Source: an uncultured Alphaproteobacteria bacterium | GTDB lineage: Bacteria; Pseudomonadota; Alphaproteobacteria; HIMB59; GCA-002718135 | Length of the DNA stretch: 64,000 bases | NCBI GenBank assembly: GCA_902597015.1 | Contig: CACJWQ010000006.1 | Coordinates: forward strand, 3,513 to 67,512 | Direction of reading: 5' to 3' | Shown here: positions 43,237 to 59,021 of the stretch, piece by piece | How positions within the stretch are numbered: the stretch's first letter is position 1 | Layout of the letters: each line of letters opens with the position of its first letter | The notes under the pieces: generated by a model | What the model saw: the letters and a program-made list of their open reading frames with translations, nothing else | Told to the model about the DNA's origin: nothing | Database searches by the model: none | Position numbers and translations under genes: made by a program

Positions 43237-44223
43237 ATGTCGTTTGAATTTTTAATTTCGAAAATTCAAAAAAATAATTTTTTACTCATAGGTAGAGCAG
43301 GAATTGATATTTATCCTGATCCACCGGGGACTAAAACTGAAAACGCCAAATCATTTGTTACCCATCTTGGAGGATCTTCTGCAAATATGGGTGTCCAATT
43401 AACTTTATTTGGAGGTAATTGTAATTTACTGACCAGAGTATCTGATGATGCTTTAGGTAAATTGGCTATTAATCAACTAAATCATTATGGTGTTAAAAAC
43501 AAATTAGTAGAATTTGAAAAAAATGAATCAAGAATTTCTTTTGCTGTTGTTGAAACCACAGTTAAAGATCATCAATCAATTATTTATAGACATAAAGCTT
43601 CTGATTTATTTTTAAATAAAGATGATGTTGAAAATGCTAATATACAAAATTTTGATTGTTTATTAATTACTGGTACTTCTTTAGCAGCTGAGCCTTCGAG
43701 AAGTGCTACTTTATATGCTTTAGATATAGCAAATAAAAATAATATTCCTGTAATTATGGACATTGATTATAGACCATATACTTGGGAATCATCAAAAAAA
43801 GCGAAAGAAGTTTATAATTTAGCAGCAAGTAAATGTAGTGGTGTAATTGGAAATGATGATGAGTTTGGTATATTAGCCGGTGATTACAACAATGGTTTGG
43901 ATCATGCTAGACAATTAGCTAAAAATGTAAGCTTAATTATTTATAAAAAAGGTGAAAAAGGCTCTATTACTTTTGCAATGAACAAAGTAATTAAAAAGGG
44001 AATATTTCCCGTAAAGCCTTTGAAACCAACTGGAGCTGGTGATGCATTTATGGGGTCATTAATTGGATCAATTTTAAAGAATAATGATTTAGAAAAATCT
44101 ATAGAAATAGGTTCAGCAGCAGCAGCTATTGTAGTGACAAAAGTTGGTTGTGCGCCAGCAATGCCAAATTTAAATGAAATTTTAAAATTTATGAAATATA
44201 ATAAAATTAATGAAGGAGAATAA
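43237..44223 (+). CDS. iolC: 5-dehydro-2-deoxygluconokinase (PfkB family)
   Basis: GRAGIDIY, GGSSAN, DIDYRP, GAGDAF; precedes iolB. Confidence 0.88.
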   Translation: MSFEFLISKIQKNNFLLIGRAGIDIYPDPPGTKTENAKSFVTHLGGSSANMGVQLTLFGGNCNLLTRVSDDALGKLAINQLNHYGVKNKLVEFEKNESRISFAVVETTVKDHQSIIYRHKASDLFLNKDDVENANIQNFDCLLITGTSLAAEPSRSATLYALDIANKNNIPVIMDIDYRPYTWESSKKAKEVYNLAASKCSGVIGNDDEFGILAGDYNNGLDHARQLAKNVSLIIYKKGEKGSITFAMNKVIKKGIFPVKPLKPTGAGDAFMGSLIGSILKNNDLEKSIEIGSAAAAIVVTKVGCAPAMPNLNEILKFMKYNKINEGE

Positions 44224-44224
44224 T

Positions 44225-45067
44225 ATGCATATTCCACCATTTGATAATAAGAACAAGCCAATTGTAGATATTGAGGACAACAGAGTTCCTTTAAATTATT
44301 TTAACATAGTAAAATTAAATAAAGATCAATCTTTTGAGTATCAAACCCCTGGTTATGAAACATGTATAGTACCTGCTACTGGAACAATTAATGTAGAAAT
44401 TGAAGGAATAAAAGTTGATTCATTAGGCACTAGAACAGTTGATGTGTGGGATGGGGAGCCAGAAGGTGTTTATGTTCCCTCTAATACAAAAGCTAAATTT
44501 ACATCTTCAGTAGATAATTCAGAAATTTTTATTGCTGGTGCAAAGTATCATAAAACTCTTGAACCATTTGCTGTTCGAGCAAATGAAATTGATTTAGTTC
44601 AGTACGGCTCTGATGATACAAAAACTCATAGAAAAATTAAACATATTTTAGGCGCTAAGCATCATGATAAAGTTGGAAGATTGCTTTGTAATGAACTTTA
44701 TACCGTTGGGCAGGGAGGTTGGTCGGGGTTTCCACCCCATAAGCATGATACAGATCGTCTACCTGATGAAACTAGACATGATGAAACGTATAATTACAGA
44801 TTTAAACCTAATAATGGATTTGGTTTTCAGATGTTTCAGCAAGTTGATGATAAAGTTGGGAAAGCTGAGCATATAATTGATGGCTCAACCGTCATGATTA
44901 GAACGGGCTATCATCCTTGTGTTGTGGCACCTGGGTATGAGATGTATTATTTCACAATTCTTGGAGGACTTTCTCAAAGATCTCTTGTGCAATTTTTTCA
45001 ACCTGAACATGCATATCAAGTTGAAACTATTCCTGGCATTAAAGATATGATTGCTAAATATAAATGA
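44225..45067 (+). CDS. iolB: 5-deoxy-glucuronate isomerase
   Basis: GGWSGFPPHKHD, ETYNYR, GYHP; AAGGAG RBS before ATG 44225. Confidence 0.9.
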   Translation: MHIPPFDNKNKPIVDIEDNRVPLNYFNIVKLNKDQSFEYQTPGYETCIVPATGTINVEIEGIKVDSLGTRTVDVWDGEPEGVYVPSNTKAKFTSSVDNSEIFIAGAKYHKTLEPFAVRANEIDLVQYGSDDTKTHRKIKHILGAKHHDKVGRLLCNELYTVGQGGWSGFPPHKHDTDRLPDETRHDETYNYRFKPNNGFGFQMFQQVDDKVGKAEHIIDGSTVMIRTGYHPCVVAPGYEMYYFTILGGLSQRSLVQFFQPEHAYQVETIPGIKDMIAKYK

Positions 45068-45894
45068 CAGCAGTAAATTTAAAAACTTTACTAACTAAAG
45101 CTAATCGTAATAATTATTCTGTAGCTGGATTAGTCGTAATTAGTTGGGAAGATGCTATTGCTTACACAGAGGCTGCACATGAAACAAAAATTCCAATTAT
45201 TTTACAAGCAGGACCTTCTTGTAGACAATATACTCCTGTTTCTATTTTGGGAAAAATGTTTAGACATCTTGCTGAACAAACTAAAACGCCTATTTGTTGT
45301 CATTTAGATCATGGATTTTCATATGATGAATGTATCGAAGGAATAGAATCTGGTTTTACATCAGTAATGTTTGATGGATCAAAACTTCCATTAAATAAAA
45401 ATATCAAAATTAGTTCAAAAATATCAAATATTGCTCATAAACATAATATTTCAGTTGAAGGGGAAGTAGGTATAGTAGGCTATCATAATGGCAATACATC
45501 TTTTGGAACAGATATTGAGGAAGCAAAAAAATATAGTTTAGAGAGTGGAGTAGATGCTATGGCAATATCAGTTGGTAATACACATTTGCAACAATCAAAG
45601 ATAGCAAAAATAGATTATAATAAAATCTTAAAAATTCAAAAAATATCGAAATTACCTTTAGTTTTACATGGTAGTAGTGGTATAAATTCTAATATGAGAA
45701 AAAAAATAGCAAGAAACACGAAAGTAGCTAAATTTAATATAGGCACCGAATTAAGAATAACAGCATGTAAAAGCTTAAGAAAAAGTTATAACAAAAAAAA
45801 ATCAAGTTTTGATAAAATAGAGATAATAAAGCCTTCAATAATTGAATTAAAAAAACATACAAAAAAAATAATAAAAAATATTGGGCCAATATAA
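45064..45894 (+). CDS. iolJ: Class II fructose-bisphosphate-aldolase-family protein, probably IolJ
   Basis: HLDHG, SVMFDGS, VEGEVG, GNTH, LVLHGSSG; follows iolCB. Confidence 0.75.
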   Translation: MTAVNLKTLLTKANRNNYSVAGLVVISWEDAIAYTEAAHETKIPIILQAGPSCRQYTPVSILGKMFRHLAEQTKTPICCHLDHGFSYDECIEGIESGFTSVMFDGSKLPLNKNIKISSKISNIAHKHNISVEGEVGIVGYHNGNTSFGTDIEEAKKYSLESGVDAMAISVGNTHLQQSKIAKIDYNKILKIQKISKLPLVLHGSSGINSNMRKKIARNTKVAKFNIGTELRITACKSLRKSYNKKKSSFDKIEIIKPSIIELKKHTKKIIKNIGPI

Positions 45895-46778
45895 TGAATG
45901 TCTTAGGCTTTATTGGTGGAAGTGGAATTTATAAACTAGAATTTTTAACTGATATAAAAGAACATCAAATTAAATCTTCATTTGGCGATCCCTCAGGTCC
46001 AATTATTGAGGGTAAAATAGATAATAACACTGTATATTTTTTATCACGTCATGGAGAGGGTCATACTTTGTCACCATCTTCAATTAATTATTGTGCCAAT
46101 ATTGATTGTTTAAAACAAGTTGGTGTAACCGATTTGATATCTCTTTCAGCCGTAGGTTCTTTAAAAGATAACTTAAAACCAGGTACATTTGTTATTGTTG
46201 ATCAATTTATAGATAGAACAATAAACAGAAAAAAAAGTTTTTTTGATAAAGGAATTGTTGCTCATGTCCCTATGGCTCATCCAACATGTGAGATTTTGAT
46301 GAATTTATCAAAAAATATATGTGAAAATATTAAAATCAATTATTCATTAGGCGGAACATATCTTGCAATGGAAGGACCTCAGTTTTCAACTTATGCTGAG
46401 TCAAATCTTTATATTGATTGGGGTTGTGATGTTATAGGAATGACAAATATGCCAGAAGCAAAATTAGCAAGAGAAGCGGAAATTAGATATTGTTCTATTT
46501 CCATGGTTACAGATTATGATTGCTGGCATCCAGATCATGATAAAGTAGATTTAAGTATGATTATAAAAACCTTAAATGATAATGTTGATAATTCAAAAAA
46601 TTTTATTAAAAATTTTAGCTCAAAATACTATGAAGGTGTATCTTTTGAAAATGATAAAACATCCAATATTTTAGATACATCTATAATTACAAAAAAAGAA
46701 TTTTGGGATAAAGACTTAGAGGATAATTTATCCAATATATTAAAAAGATATAAGAAAAATTCTAATGCTAGTAAATGA
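45894..46778 (+). CDS. mtnP: 5'-methylthioadenosine phosphorylase
   Basis: IGGSG, RHGEGH, EGPQFST, GMT, TDYDCWH. Confidence 0.93.
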   Translation: MNVLGFIGGSGIYKLEFLTDIKEHQIKSSFGDPSGPIIEGKIDNNTVYFLSRHGEGHTLSPSSINYCANIDCLKQVGVTDLISLSAVGSLKDNLKPGTFVIVDQFIDRTINRKKSFFDKGIVAHVPMAHPTCEILMNLSKNICENIKINYSLGGTYLAMEGPQFSTYAESNLYIDWGCDVIGMTNMPEAKLAREAEIRYCSISMVTDYDCWHPDHDKVDLSMIIKTLNDNVDNSKNFIKNFSSKYYEGVSFENDKTSNILDTSIITKKEFWDKDLEDNLSNILKRYKKNSNASK

Positions 46779-47844
46779 TAAACATTTAACAACTATTTGG
46801 TATGATAAAGCTAAAGAAGTTGTAAAAATAATAGATCAAAGGCTTTTACCATTTGAATTAAGGATTGTAGAATTAAATACACTAGAAGATTTTTGTTTTG
46901 CTATTAAAGAAATGCAAGTTAGGGGCGCACCCCTAATAGGTGTCACTGCTGCATATGGAATGTATGTAGCATCTAAAACTACTAAAAATTTTTCAGAATT
47001 AGAAAAAGCAGGTGACAGTCTTAAGTCAACAAGACCCACAGCAGTTAATTTATCCTGGGCAGTAGATAAAATTATCACTGAGATTAAAGATATGGAAAAA
47101 TCTAGCTTACAAGAAATAATTCTTTCAATTGCTAATGAGATCAGAGAGCAAGATATAATTAATTGCAAAGCAATTGGCGAAAATGGCTCTAAACTTATTG
47201 AAAATATTTACAAAAAAACGCAAAAAAAAGTAAATGTTTTAACTCACTGTAATGCTGGGTGGTTAGCTACTGTTGATTGGGGAACCGCTTTAGCACCAAT
47301 ATTTATTGCAAATCAAAAAAAAATCCCCATACATGTTTGGATTGACGAAACCAGACCTAGAAATCAAGGTTTCAGTCTTACAGCTTGGGAATTAATGCAT
47401 GAAAAGATAGAAAATTCATTAATCGTAGACAACGTTGGTGGTCATTTAATGCAAAATGGCATGATAGATCTTTGTATAACTGGAACAGACAGAACCTCTT
47501 TAAATGGTGATGTTTGTAATAAAATTGGCACGTATTTAAAGGCTCTAGCTGCTAAAGATAATGATATTCCCTTTTACGTTGCAGCACCGATTTCCAGTAT
47601 AGATTTTAATATTAAGAATGGAGTAAAAGAAATACCTATAGAAGAAAGAGATCCAACCGAAGTATCCATTATTGAGGGTATTGACGAAAACAATAATAGA
47701 AAGAAAATTAAAATTATACCTGAAGGCTCAAATTGTAAAAACTATGCCTTTGATATAACTCCTGCAAAATATATTACTAAATTGATTACAGAAAAAGGAG
47801 TTATAGATAGTAATGAAGAATCTATTGGTGGATTAAAAAATTAA
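46765..47844 (+). CDS. mtnA: Methylthioribose-1-phosphate isomerase
   Basis: DQRLLP, VRGAPLIG, RPTAVNL, THCNAG, ETRP, NKIGTY, FDITP. Confidence 0.94.
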   Translation: MLVNDKHLTTIWYDKAKEVVKIIDQRLLPFELRIVELNTLEDFCFAIKEMQVRGAPLIGVTAAYGMYVASKTTKNFSELEKAGDSLKSTRPTAVNLSWAVDKIITEIKDMEKSSLQEIILSIANEIREQDIINCKAIGENGSKLIENIYKKTQKKVNVLTHCNAGWLATVDWGTALAPIFIANQKKIPIHVWIDETRPRNQGFSLTAWELMHEKIENSLIVDNVGGHLMQNGMIDLCITGTDRTSLNGDVCNKIGTYLKALAAKDNDIPFYVAAPISSIDFNIKNGVKEIPIEERDPTEVSIIEGIDENNNRKKIKIIPEGSNCKNYAFDITPAKYITKLITEKGVIDSNEESIGGLKN

Positions 47845-47845
47845 T

Positions 47846-49864
47846 ATGAAAAATGAATGGAAAGAAAGTTTAGCTAAAAAATATATCAAAGAATATCAGT
47901 TAAAGAAAGTTAGCAAAGATTTAGCATTAAGAATATACTCAACACATTTACTAGGAAATAATCCAGAACTCGTTTTACATGGAGGAGGCAATACATCTGT
48001 AAAATCAATTAAAAAAAATTTATTTGGAAAAGAAAACGATGTACTTTTTGTAAAAGGAAGTGGATGGGATATGTCAAACCTAAATGAAAGAGGATTACCA
48101 GGTCTGTATCTTGATCCTTTACTTAAAACTCTATCCTTAAAAAAAATGAGTGATGAAAAGATGGTTAATTATTTAAGATCAAACTTACTTGATTCAAATT
48201 CTCCTAATCCATCAATTGAAACTCTTTTACATGCTTATTTACCATTTAAATATGTAGATCATACACATTCAAATGCGATTTTAAGTTTAGTCAATCTAGA
48301 TAATTCAAAAGAGATATTAAATAAAATTTACAAAGATAAAATTGCAATAGTTCCATACGTAATGCCAGGATTTGAACTTGCTAAATTATGTCATATGGTA
48401 ATTTCAAAAAATCATAAAATTGAAGGATTAATACTTTTAAATCATGGCATTTTCACTTTTGGAAGTTCAGCAAAACAAAGTTATGATAGAATGATTAAGC
48501 TTGTGACATTAGCTGAAAATTTTTTAAACAAGCAAAAAAAATTAATAAAATATAATAATAATAATAATAATAAAAAAATAAATATAGCTGATGTTCAATT
48601 ATGTATTAGAAATATATATCATTCCTTTACAGATAAAAGATGGATAATAAAATTTAATGATAAAATTGAAGATGTAAAATTTACAAATCGAAAAGATTTA
48701 TTTAATTTATTTAATAAAGGACCTGTTACGCCTGATCATGTTATTAGAATAAAATCTGAACCATTAATAATACCCAACAAACATTTATCATCTAACAAAA
48801 TGATTTCTAATCATATTAAAACATATATTAAAAAATATAAAAATTATTTTAAAAAATATAAAAAAAATATTACAAATTCCAAAATTGCTGATCCTTTACC
48901 AAGAATTATTATTTTAGAAGGAATAGGTTTTCTATCAATAGGTCTTAATAAAAAAGAAATGCAAGTTTCTTACGACATATTTGATGCAATGAAAAAAGTT
49001 ATAATTAAAGCAAATTTAGTTTCAAAATTTAAATCAATTAACAACACAGATATTTTTAAAATGGAATACTGGCCATTAGAAAGAGCAAAACTGAATAATC
49101 AAAATACAAAAAAATTTAGTGGGAATATTGCAGTAATTACGGGTGGGGCTGGTAAAATTGGAAGCGCGATTGCAAATAAATTTATAAATGAAAATATTGA
49201 AGTCATACTTTTAGATAAAAACTTTAAAAATCTTGATATCAATATCAAAAAAAAATGTCTATGTATTGAGTGTGATTTAACCAATAATTCTCAAATCAAT
49301 AAAGCATTAAACAAGATATTAAAATTATTCGGTGGTATAGATATTCTAATAGCAAACTCTGGTGCAGCATTTCAAGGTAGTATGCTAAATGTAAAAAAAG
49401 ATATTTTAGAAAAAAGTTTAGAGGTTAATTTTTATAGTCATCATAATATTGTCCAAAAAATTGCAAATATTATGGTATCACAAGGTTTTGGTGGTTCAAT
49501 CTCTCTTAATTTGTCAAAACAATCTATAAATCCTGGTAAAGATTTTGGACCATATGGTATTGCAAAAGCTAGTTCGTTATTTTCTATGAAACAATATGCT
49601 TTAGAATTTGGAAAATATAATATTCGAGTTAATGGAATTAATGCTGATCGTATAAAAAGTGGTTTATTAACTGATCAGTTTATTAAAGAAAGAGCAAAAG
49701 CTAGAAATATGTCTTCAACTGAATATTTAAATAATAATTTACTTCAAAAACAAGTAACTGCAGAAGATGTTGCTGAAGCATTTTTTGCACAATTATCATT
49801 TGAAAAAACAACAGGGAATATTATTACTGTTGATGGTGGTAATATTGAAGCTAGTTTAAGATAG
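47846..49864 (+). CDS. Bifunctional class II aldolase / short-chain dehydrogenase
   Basis: N-terminal GGGNTSVK, PSIETLLH, DHTH, NHG; C-terminal TGGAGKIG, YGIAK, VDGG. Confidence 0.9.
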   Translation: MKNEWKESLAKKYIKEYQLKKVSKDLALRIYSTHLLGNNPELVLHGGGNTSVKSIKKNLFGKENDVLFVKGSGWDMSNLNERGLPGLYLDPLLKTLSLKKMSDEKMVNYLRSNLLDSNSPNPSIETLLHAYLPFKYVDHTHSNAILSLVNLDNSKEILNKIYKDKIAIVPYVMPGFELAKLCHMVISKNHKIEGLILLNHGIFTFGSSAKQSYDRMIKLVTLAENFLNKQKKLIKYNNNNNNKKINIADVQLCIRNIYHSFTDKRWIIKFNDKIEDVKFTNRKDLFNLFNKGPVTPDHVIRIKSEPLIIPNKHLSSNKMISNHIKTYIKKYKNYFKKYKKNITNSKIADPLPRIIILEGIGFLSIGLNKKEMQVSYDIFDAMKKVIIKANLVSKFKSINNTDIFKMEYWPLERAKLNNQNTKKFSGNIAVITGGAGKIGSAIANKFINENIEVILLDKNFKNLDINIKKKCLCIECDLTNNSQINKALNKILKLFGGIDILIANSGAAFQGSMLNVKKDILEKSLEVNFYSHHNIVQKIANIMVSQGFGGSISLNLSKQSINPGKDFGPYGIAKASSLFSMKQYALEFGKYNIRVNGINADRIKSGLLTDQFIKERAKARNMSSTEYLNNNLLQKQVTAEDVAEAFFAQLSFEKTTGNIITVDGGNIEASLR

Positions 49865-50281
49865 GTGTTATTAAAATTTTTAGAAAAAATTGGAAGAAAG
49901 AAAATTGTTCTAGATAGAGGGCCGTCTCATCCAGAATTTTATAAAGCAAAACCATGGATGGAAAGATATTACCTATTATTTAGAAAAAGACCAAAATGGT
50001 TTCCATTTAATATTTTGATTCATAAAATGTTAGATGATGATCACGGTGAAGGAGTTCATAATCATCTTTGTCCTTATATAACAATTATTTTAAAAGGTGG
50101 TTATTGGGAAACAACAAAAAAAGGAAAATTTTGGAGACCTCCTGGATATATTGGTTTTAGGTCGGCTGATCATCTACACAGAGTTGACTTAAAACCAAAT
50201 ACAAACACAATGACGTTATTTATTCCCGGACCTTTTGGTTTTAGAAAAACAAAAAGAACTGATTATAAAACAAAAATATAA
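49865..50281 (+). CDS. Small cupin-like metalloprotein
   Basis: HNH...ILKGGYWE...LHRV cupin-type motif; GTG start immediately after upstream TAG. Confidence 0.65.
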   Translation: MLLKFLEKIGRKKIVLDRGPSHPEFYKAKPWMERYYLLFRKRPKWFPFNILIHKMLDDDHGEGVHNHLCPYITIILKGGYWETTKKGKFWRPPGYIGFRSADHLHRVDLKPNTNTMTLFIPGPFGFRKTKRTDYKTKI

Positions 50282-57301: not shown

Positions 57302-57739
57302 ATGTCTAAAAAAATAGAAAACTTAATATTTAAAACTGAATCCAAAGGAGATCAAATAACACCTTATTTTCTTGATACAGTATCTGCAGGTTTTCCATCT
57401 CCAGCTACTGATTATATGGAAAACAAACTTGATCTTAATGAATATTTGGTTCAACGTCCAACAGCAACCTATATCGTTAAAGCTAATGGCCCTTCTATGA
57501 CCGATGCAGGCATATTATCAGGTGATTTACTTATTGTTGATAGAAGTATTACACCTCGTAACGACAATATTGTTATAGCCTCTATCTTTGGTGATCTAAC
57601 AGTTAAAAAACTGAAAAAGAAAGATCAGTCACTATTTTTAATTTCTGCCAATAGTGAGTATCCTAGTATTCAAGTTAAAGAGGAAATGGAGTGTTTTATA
57701 TGGGGGGTAGTGACATATGTCATACACAAGACTACTTAA
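57302..57739 (+). CDS. umuD: Error-prone polymerase V subunit UmuD (S24 peptidase)
   Basis: SAGFPSPA cleavage site, GPSM Ser, TVKK Lys, no HTH. Confidence 0.92.
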   Translation: MSKKIENLIFKTESKGDQITPYFLDTVSAGFPSPATDYMENKLDLNEYLVQRPTATYIVKANGPSMTDAGILSGDLLIVDRSITPRNDNIVIASIFGDLTVKKLKKKDQSLFLISANSEYPSIQVKEEMECFIWGVVTYVIHKTT

Positions 57740-59021
57740 TAGAAATCATAACTCAGTAAATCAATCTATAGCATTGATAGATTGCAATAATTTTTATGCG
57801 TCATGTGAAAGAATATTTAATCCAAAACTTATAGGAGAACCAATTGTCGTACTTTCCAATAATGATGGTTGTATCATTGCACGATCAAAAGAAGCAAAAA
57901 AATTAGGGATAAAAATGGGTGAACCTTATTTTAAAGCAAAAAATATTATTGAAAAAAATGATGTTAAAGTTTTTTCATCTAATTATTCTTTATATGGTGA
58001 TATTTCTCAGAGAGTAATGGAGACTTTATCAAGTTTCTCTTCAGAGGTAGAAATCTACTCCATAGATGAAGCATTTCTTGGTTTAAATGGTTTTGAGAAC
58101 TATGAGCTAAACACTTATTGCAGACATATTAGACAAACAATTAAGAGGTGGGTTGGTATTCCAGTTAGTATTGGAGTGGGCCCAACAAAAACACTATCAA
58201 AAATAGCTAATCATTTAGCAAAAAAACAAACAGAATATAAAGGTGTGTGCATACTAAAAAATAAAATAGAAATAAAAAAAGCATTAGAATTAACATCCAT
58301 TGAAGAAGTATGGGGCATTGGAAGAAGATTATCTCTTTTCCTGAAAAAATATAATATTTATAATGCTTATCAATTTTCACAAATGGACAGAGGATGGATA
58401 AGAAAAAATATGGGTGTAGTGGGAGAGAAGACATACCTAGAACTAAATAGTGTATCGTGTTTAGAACTTGATTTAGTTCCAAGTGATAAACAAAGTTGTT
58501 GTGTCTCAAGATCATTTAGTCAGCCAATAGAAAAATTATTTAATTTGGAGGAATCAATATCAACTTATGGATCAAGAGTATCAGAGAAGATAAGGGAAGA
58601 GGGGTTAGTGGCTGAGTCGATGAGTGTTTTTGTTTTAACAAATCATTTTAATAGAAGAGAGAAACAATATTCGAATTCAATAAAACTACACTTACCTTTT
58701 CCAACAAATAATAGCATAAAGATTGTTAAAAGAGCTCTTGAAGGAATTAGAAAAATATACCGACCAGGATTTCGTTATAAAAAAGCTGGAATTATATTAT
58801 ACGGTCTTAGCAGACACAATGTAACTAGAGGATTGCTTGATTATGACCGTGATACATCGGATAGAATAATGAATACTATTGACAATATTAATTCTAGATA
58901 TGGAAGTTCAACGTTAAAGATAGCTTCTGAAGGTATAGAAAAAATATGGAAGATGAAAAGAGAAAACGTATCCCCATGTTACACAACACGTTTTGAAGAA
59001 TTAGTGGAAGTTAAAGCTTAG
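57717..59021 (+). CDS. umuC: Y-family DNA polymerase V subunit UmuC
   Basis: DCNNFYASCE, LSNNDGC, YSIDE, SPCYTT tail. Confidence 0.93.
   Translation: MSYTRLLNRNHNSVNQSIALIDCNNFYASCERIFNPKLIGEPIVVLSNNDGCIIARSKEAKKLGIKMGEPYFKAKNIIEKNDVKVFSSNYSLYGDISQRVMETLSSFSSEVEIYSIDEAFLGLNGFENYELNTYCRHIRQTIKRWVGIPVSIGVGPTKTLSKIANHLAKKQTEYKGVCILKNKIEIKKALELTSIEEVWGIGRRLSLFLKKYNIYNAYQFSQMDRGWIRKNMGVVGEKTYLELNSVSCLELDLVPSDKQSCCVSRSFSQPIEKLFNLEESISTYGSRVSEKIREEGLVAESMSVFVLTNHFNRREKQYSNSIKLHLPFPTNNSIKIVKRALEGIRKIYRPGFRYKKAGIILYGLSRHNVTRGLLDYDRDTSDRIMNTIDNINSRYGSSTLKIASEGIEKIWKMKRENVSPCYTTRFEELVEVKA

Follow-up and report, generated by a model that had tools for sequence, protein, structure and literature searches.

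The window analyzed here is a 64,000-nucleotide (nt) stretch of contig CACJWQ010000006.1 (GenBank assembly GCA_902597015.1), from an uncultured alphaproteobacterium of the order HIMB59. Its plus strand carries mtnP, mtnA, a gene for a class II aldolase fused to a short-chain dehydrogenase/reductase (SDR; the protein is called the fusion below) and a cupin-like open reading frame (ORF) of 138 amino acids (aa) (Table 1). The ORF coordinates agree with an initial annotation that had described four genes joined by overlaps or gaps of 0–1 nt: mtnP and mtnA overlap by 14 nt, mtnA and the fusion gene are 1 nt apart, and the 138-aa ORF follows with a 0-nt gap. On balance, we slightly favor a reading in which mtnP, mtnA and the fusion would form a three-gene cassette for a variant of the dihydroxyacetone phosphate (DHAP) shunt acting on 5′-methylthioadenosine (MTA) or 5′-deoxyadenosine, with an NAD+-dependent, oxidizing SDR.

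Table 1. Features of the locus in window coordinates, and loci of the alternative gene of genus mates in their own coordinates. Scores are in bits, with model cut-offs in parentheses; SAH, S-adenosylhomocysteine.
Feature	Position	Strand	Evidence
mtnP, MTA/5′-deoxyadenosine phosphorylase, 294 aa	45894..46778	+	TIGR01694 275.8 (274.85); PF01048
mtnA, methylthioribose-1-phosphate isomerase, 359 aa	46765..47844	+	TIGR00512 413.8 (279); NF004326 437.3 (271)
Class II aldolase/SDR fusion, 672 aa	47846..49864	+	NF006192 775.8 (639); below cut-off: TIGR02632 416.7 (567.75), NF006189 402.5 (634)
Fusion, N-terminal class II aldolase domain, aa 1–229	47846..48532	+	PF00596; PDB 3M4R superposition
Fusion, middle region, aa 240–420, conserved TPDH and EYW motifs	48563..49105	+	matches fusion-family models only
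Fusion, C-terminal SDR, aa 421–672, tetrad N528-S557-Y570-K574	49106..49864	+	PF13561/PF00106; SDR folds
Cupin-like protein, 138 aa, GTG start	49865..50281	+	automatic ESM Atlas cluster name
iolC-iolB-class II aldolase (IolJ-like)	43237..45894	+	below cut-off: TIGR04382 295.6 (300), TIGR04378 169.4 (205); PF01116
MTA/SAH-nucleosidase-like gene, L350	6387-6917	-	
MTA/SAH-nucleosidase-like gene, L351	11668-12198	+	
MTA/SAH-nucleosidase-like gene, L355–L359			

Domains of the fusion and content of the host genome

MtnA scored well above both model cut-offs; MtnP passed that of TIGR01694 only narrowly and fell below that of NF006492. The aldolase and SDR motifs of the fusion, previously described as intact, were all located in the translated sequence: S123-IETLLH, H139-T-H141 and N199-H200-G in the aldolase domain, which also contains a phosphate loop (G46–S51), and T432-GGAGKIG and Y570-GIA-K574 in the SDR. 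Across 26 family members E125, H139, H141, H200, N528, Y570 and K574 are invariant, and at least 90% of the members have D457 and S557. From FucA and RhaD, we take H139, H141 and H200 to be the metal ligands and E125 to be the catalytic acid/base. An Asp after the second strand of an SDR points to NAD(H), and D457 points to this cofactor for the fusion.

In an AlphaFold2 model built from 26 sequences (mean predicted local distance difference test score, pLDDT, 87), residues 1–228 superpose on PDB 3M4R from Thermoplasma acidophilum, listed as uncharacterised (Z 32.5, root-mean-square deviation 1.5 over 212 residues; Foldseek E 2.9e-22), and residues 421–669 match SDR folds (Z about 28). The N-terminal domain is distant from every characterized family, its best non-fusion matches being at E 6e-06 or weaker; with the Ald2-like family defined below it shares 26% identity over 129 columns (HHalign probability 89%). 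The middle region gave a weak HHalign match to the N-terminal domain (probability 28%; no convincing homology) and is possibly a degenerate second aldolase-type module.

The host assembly (1.2 Mb, low GC) is 66.7% complete, and the fusion is its sole class II aldolase (PF00596). In this incomplete assembly MtnB, MtnD, RuBisCO-like protein (RLP)/MtnW and RhaI were not found, and MtnC gave no match over its cut-off; MtnD and RLP were also not found in four cassette-bearing genus mates (78–88% complete). For the window, the initial annotation had noted no mtnB/C/D and no rhamnose genes, and the neighbors of the fusion are iol and mtn genes. A crude motif search of the same assembly returned five ORFs of radical-SAM type and neither a spermidine synthase nor an S-adenosylmethionine (SAM) decarboxylase motif, a weak hint that 5′-deoxyadenosine may be the main input in this host.

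Linkage with mtn genes and near exclusion with Ald2-like aldolases

The survey covered Pseudomonadota (Alphaproteobacteria and Gammaproteobacteria). For the former we sampled 400 genomes, each at least 90% complete, and counted as a fusion any NF006192 match over its cut-off; G202, below that cut-off, was counted as fusion-less. Near-identical genus mates came from a single-protein contig scan, overlap in part with the sampled genomes and were kept out of the class counts. Gene neighborhoods were called with codon scoring to exclude shadow ORFs in high-GC genomes.

The fusion was present in 77 of the 400 genomes (38 families), about one in five, streamlined marine lineages included. mtnA was found in 73 of these 77 genomes vs. 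113 of the 323 others. In 33 genomes (16 families) mtnA immediately precedes the fusion on the same strand; 5 more have it within 2.4 kb upstream, 35 have it elsewhere in the genome, and in 4 it was not found. All 35 fusion loci from genomes with mtnA elsewhere were examined, and in 7 of them mtnP was upstream of the fusion, directly or via apt. Linkage with mtnA or mtnP, seen at a single locus by the initial annotation, is therefore conserved, in 45 of 77 genomes.

Two layouts recurred: mtnK-mtnA-fusion (L137 and L139) and petABC-mtnP-(apt)-mtnA-fusion, the latter in some cases with a glyoxalase-like gene after the fusion; at L170 a nucleoside hydrolase and an ABC transporter are added. Three of 64 plasmid matches were examined, among them Ruegeria sp. 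AD91A, with mtnA followed by the fusion homolog WP_117874025.1, and Pararhizobium qamdonense, with mtnK-mtnA 4 kb downstream of the fusion. The gene that often follows the fusion is of the Glyoxalase_3 type (PF13468; L134:6098-6949 and eight similar loci) and may take the aldehyde or the acid product as its substrate. In a Pararhizobium locus (L315:13452-16052) mtnK-mtnA precedes a gene for a transketolase-like N-terminal domain, possibly another way in which the MtnA product is used.

To analyze displacement, we took 40 of the 113 fusion-less genomes with mtnA, hand-picked across families among the listed matches, and examined the surroundings of mtnA in each. A stand-alone FucA/Ald2-like aldolase flanked mtnA in 26 of the 40 (24 directly downstream, 1 upstream, 1 divergent) and in 0 of 20 loci from fusion genomes (20 of the 35 with unlinked mtnA). 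A profile was built from 23 of the flanking aldolases, labeled Ald2-like by position and FucA likeness, with no named Ald2 sequence among them. It matched 4 of the 77 fusion genomes vs. 61 of 72 held-out fusion-less genomes with mtnA. Among the 11 held-out genomes without an Ald2-like gene four have mtnB and seven neither. The genomes in which mtnA occurs without the fusion, an Ald2-like gene or mtnB (G272, G306, G311, G374, G404, G409 and G435) may use the isoprenoid shunt or another step. mtnB is rare, both overall (14/400) and in fusion genomes (5/77), and at least 64 of the 73 genomes with fusion and mtnA have neither MtnB nor Ald2. Because five families hold both fusion-type and Ald2-type genomes, the pattern does not reflect one ancient split. 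Such exclusion is the expectation when two unrelated proteins perform the same step.

A cassette swap was observed within the genus. G236 (96% complete) has neither mtnA nor a class II aldolase. In this genome and in G030 iolC-iolB-iolJ, cupin, tauE and metC are kept, and a 176-aa gene, whose best matches are MTA/SAH nucleosidases at scores below cut-off, replaces mtnP-mtnA-fusion. When it was sought in 15 hand-picked genomes, with a synteny check, the nucleosidase-like gene was found in seven genus mates in all (five beyond these two) and in none of six cassette genomes. It lies between iolJ and cupin; six mates show both flanks, and in G019 the contig ends within the locus. Between the two slot alleles the IolJ-like gene is only 65–66% identical, and it therefore travelled with the swap. 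Both alleles are predicted to handle 5′-deoxynucleosides: the nucleosidase-like one would free only adenine, whereas the cassette would recover the sugar too. In G029 (L352:8325-8805) just a 3′ portion of the fusion gene and a fragment of mtnA are present next to a contig end, for which an internal deletion or an assembly artefact may account.

These data suggest, on the basis of (i) linkage with mtnA, (ii) near exclusion with Ald2-like genes, (iii) occupation of the same slot and (iv) the nucleosidase swap, that the fusion likely replaces Ald2 in the DHAP shunt. The role of shunt aldolase originally proposed for it is thus well supported by comparative genomics.

The cupin, in contrast, had been counted as the fourth gene of the pathway and does not belong to it. 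All seven genus mates that lack the cassette keep it at 92–96% identity, and in G033 it comes after a sugar-operon fusion, so that it is not pathway-specific; it was not beside the fusion in any locus examined from other families. We regard it, from this distribution, as a bystander of the three-gene cassette. A role as methylsulfurylase or MtnD-like partner was rejected, since the gene persists without the cassette and no RLP was found in the incomplete assemblies of the host and four mates. Its name derives from an automatic cluster label (score 0.98). The ORF has no Pfam or NCBIfam match, no useful name among 120 listed homologs and an uninformative single-sequence fold (pLDDT 40). The family is large, with 1225 clusters of close homologs that in some cases run to thousands of members, and almost unannotated, and its Atlas neighbors are mostly labeled viral, although few members carry taxa.

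Upstream, the initial annotation had overlooked the iolC-iolB-IolJ trio, which extends the gene run and overlaps mtnP by 1 nt. It is present with either slot allele and is likely a separate inositol module. Its IolJ-like gene encodes a class II fructose-bisphosphate-type aldolase, which was considered as the shunt aldolase and set aside, not being needed since it accompanies both alleles. A few genes further downstream, the translations suggest a umuD-umuC-like pair (window positions 57302-59021).

Predicted reactions and competing readings

In the proposed route, MtnP would phosphorolyze MTA or 5′-deoxyadenosine to adenine and a ribose-1-phosphate derivative, which MtnA would isomerize to methylthio- or deoxy-ribulose-1-phosphate. 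Both reactions are established for these families (PMC13474568, PMC10986504; PMC numbers here and below refer to the excerpts available of those papers). The aldolase domain of the fusion would then split the MtnA product, in a metal-assisted retro-aldol reaction, into DHAP and either methylthioacetaldehyde or acetaldehyde. Using NAD+, the SDR would oxidize the aldehyde in its hydrated form and so yield (methylthio)acetate or acetate. This oxidation would pull the unfavorable aldol cleavage forward, as in RhaEW, the bifunctional rhamnulose-1-phosphate aldolase/lactaldehyde dehydrogenase. An apt gene, 7 kb upstream in the window, could serve adenine recovery. From genomic context, the MtnA product is probably the aldolase substrate. 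By analogy, the SDR likely oxidizes rather than reduces the aldehyde, because RhaEW oxidizes lactaldehyde with NAD+, gave no reductase activity and depended on NAD+ for turnover (excerpt of PMC3870299).

Several observations weigh against this reading. No mtn gene adjoins the fusion in 32 of the 77 genomes, and 4 have no mtnA at all. In metagenome loci, mtn genes were linked upstream in only 24 of 80 (16 of the 50 with at least 1.5 kb of upstream flank); in five further loci mtnA is convergent downstream. The sampled genomes are related, so the counts overstate independence, and Fisher tests (p about 1e-23 and 5e-25), which ignore relatedness, were not relied on. In Gammaproteobacteria, 44 of 301 genomes had a fusion match, nearly all of a sister type with a RhaEW-like SDR loop; 43 of the 44 have mtnA, in none adjoining the fusion, and 20 have mtnB, figures that cover only the fusion genomes of this class. 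At 30 loci of the sister type, the 41 neighboring proteins included no mtn product. In known DHAP-shunt hosts it is the alcohol, not the acid, that builds up (PMC5893883, PMC10986504), and the SDR loop differs from that of RhaEW, so that the oxidative direction may not carry over.

Sugar contexts weigh in the same direction. In G037, G040, G033 and L167 the fusion is preceded by an FGGY kinase, an iron-alcohol dehydrogenase (ADH)-like gene and an SDR gene; in G407 its neighbors are an FGGY kinase, an SDR gene and rpiB. On Rhizobium etli p42a it belongs to a sugar operon, and in five genus mates it follows two Gfo/Idh/MocA genes, a TIM-barrel isomerase and a PfkB kinase. At 99% completeness, G037 lacks mtnA; the fusion of L167 is nearly identical to that of this same-order genome. 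Sugar-operon fusions nest among mtn-linked ones in a FastTree tree, a placement compatible with secondary recruitment or with a ketose-1-phosphate aldolase of broad specificity.

Further features of these contexts were recorded. The operon common to HIMB59-order genomes and R. etli p42a (L066, L070, L078, L167 and L313) comprises genes for an SDR, an FGGY kinase, an iron-ADH/glycerol-1-phosphate dehydrogenase-like protein, an ABC transporter and an NF006192-type fusion. The second sugar context within the genus occurs at L068, L072, L073, L076 and L077. At L076 a split transketolase and an RLP come after it, an arrangement reminiscent of apiose/apionate catabolism. In about nine same-order genomes a FucA-like aldolase forms a tandem pair with a 340-aa protein resembling the N-terminal part of the fusion without the SDR; at L067:4851-6501 the two genes overlap. 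An FAD-dependent oxidoreductase gene (PF01266) is upstream of the gammaproteobacterial sister fusion in 6 of the 30 loci (L323, L326, L328, L334, L341 and L345).

The strongest competitor keeps the aldol cleavage and reverses the SDR: with NADH as reductant it would form 2-(methylthio)ethanol or ethanol from the aldehyde, and so provide in built-in form the alcohol dehydrogenase step that has yet to be assigned in the DHAP shunt. SDRs usually interconvert carbonyls and alcohols, and the loop of the fusion subfamily (N.SKQ..NPG.dFGPY) is unlike that of RhaEW (SSKN...GASAY). 2-(Methylthio)ethanol is the product observed in Rhodopseudomonas palustris (PMC5893883), where the reductase is given as unknown (excerpt of PMC13474568). 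However, no reductase activity was seen for RhaEW, the closest characterized relative, whose turnover required NAD+, and known alcohol producers rely on a stand-alone Ald2, a gene that rarely shares a genome with the fusion. We consider this alternative unlikely, though it deserves to be kept in view.

A second alternative, which we judge improbable, makes the fusion a broad D-ribulose-1-phosphate aldolase/glycolaldehyde dehydrogenase: with MtnP and MtnA it would mainly turn the ribose of ordinary purine nucleosides into DHAP and glycolate, and with FGGY kinases it would serve pentose or polyol catabolism. One chemistry would cover both contexts, as the nesting would allow; glycolaldehyde is lactaldehyde minus a methyl group and hence the closest analogue of the RhaEW substrate; and haloarchaea have a ribulose-1-phosphate aldolase route (PMC9700705). 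Yet the exclusion with Ald2, the partnership with MtnK (methylthioribose kinase) and the swap with an MTA-nucleosidase-like gene point to 5′-deoxynucleosides, and bacteria normally route ribose-1-phosphate via the pentose phosphate pathway (PMC9700705).

There is little to recommend a third possibility, that the N-terminal domain performs another class II reaction, such as an MtnB-like dehydration or an epimerization, with the SDR acting on a five-carbon sugar and no DHAP formed. The fold does include dehydratases and epimerases, and the domain is distant from every characterized family. Against this, the fusion scored 16.1 bits with the MtnB model TIGR03328 (cut-off 137.05), no MtnD or RLP to continue such a route was found in the host or the four cassette-bearing mates, and both the nearest characterized relative and the displaced gene are aldolases. 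Least probable is a rhamnose or other deoxyhexose enzyme placed after mtnA by chance: it has in its favor the RhaEW architecture, the sugar-operon members and the JGI name "rhamnose utilization protein RhaD" of several close homologs, but scores below both RhaEW cut-offs, the separate RhaEW-type branch with Asp for Glu described below, the failure to find RhaI in the host assembly, and a pattern of linkage in at least 16 families with Ald2 exclusion that is not incidental all speak against it.

Comparison with known routes

If the NAD+-oxidizing DHAP-shunt reading is true, it gives a function to a large protein family now unnamed or labeled as a rhamnose enzyme, and it fills the gap after MtnA in many Alphaproteobacteria with neither MtnB nor Ald2; DHAP-shunt surveys that seek Ald2 alone would overlook such genomes. 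(Methylthio)acetate, if it is the product, would join the candidates for small organosulfur compounds made by marine bacteria. A 2026 review (PMC13474568) describes the enzyme acting on methylthioacetaldehyde as not yet known, and the SDR joined to the aldolase here is a candidate for it. Our literature search found no report of (methylthio)acetate as an end product of bacterial MTA metabolism and no publication linking the fusion to MTA salvage, although the DHAP-shunt surveys of North et al. (2017, PNAS; 2020, Mol Microbiol) or their supplements may mention it. The excerpts available of PMC6302742, PMC6079011, PMC13474568, PMC5893883, PMC10986504, PMC12632272, PMC9700705, PMC13753814 and PMC8437039 do not mention the fusion. 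A broader formulation, that NF006192 fusions are a second main form of the DHAP shunt, channeling and oxidizing the aldehyde to yield (methylthio)acetate from MTA and to recover 5′-deoxyadenosine in full as DHAP, acetate and NADH, is offered tentatively and would go further than we would at present wager.

The fusion is a member of NF006192 (PRK08324.1-6, "bifunctional aldolase/short-chain dehydrogenase"), a family name that gives no substrate. With RhaEW and YuxG it shares the architecture of a class II aldolase with a C-terminal SDR (about 32% identity), the three His, the SDR tetrad and the TPDH and EYW motifs. The initial annotation had noted that such fusions usually carry the RhaEW-type name; its scores below the RhaEW cut-offs, Glu in place of Asp and a separate clade argue instead for a separate subfamily. 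The fusion and its subfamily consensus have Glu at the catalytic position (E125, SVETLLH), and six same-order RhaEW-type proteins have Asp (SIDTPLH). The six form a separate long branch (FastTree support 100). The tree carries a long-branch warning at the RhaEW/L171 join and a base-composition bias, and we therefore draw from it no conclusion on the direction of transfer. Rhamnulose-1-phosphate differs in stereochemistry from the FucA-type product of MtnA. The latter is 3R,4R (PMC6079011). RhaEW itself has Asp at the catalytic Glu position and, in the excerpt of PMC3870299, always lies in rha loci, in contrast to the mtn and iol neighbors of the fusion.

Two further routes bear comparison. The haloarchaeal route (NF053831; PMC9700705) similarly leads from nucleoside ribose via ribulose-1-phosphate to DHAP and a two-carbon aldehyde, followed by a redox step, but its FucA-like aldolase is apart from the glycolaldehyde reductase, and entry is by ribose-1,5-bisphosphate isomerase and a phosphatase, not MtnA. 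For the MTA-isoprenoid shunt, which requires RLP and a cupin methylsulfurylase, no RLP was found in the host or the four mates, all incomplete genomes.

The closest likeness is to the DHAP shunt known from Rhodospirillum rubrum, Rhodopseudomonas palustris, Escherichia coli ATCC 25922 and Bacillus thuringiensis, which uses MtnP or MtnN and MtnK, then MtnA and Ald2/DrdA (EC 4.1.2.62). In both, MtnP and MtnA come first and a metal-dependent class II aldolase (Glu and three His) is encoded after mtnA, and most fusion carriers are without mtnB. Ald2/DrdA, however, is a stand-alone FucA-like aldolase of about 215 aa with an IPAFHYM motif; the fusion lacks this motif, is three times longer, has the SDR attached and is no orthologue. 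The known shunt ends in an alcohol, whereas the predicted end product of the fusion is an acid. The cassette is thus likely a new variant, in aldolase-dehydrogenase form, of a known pathway, and the fusion likely works like a DHAP-shunt aldolase yet belongs to neither the Ald2 nor the RhaEW family.

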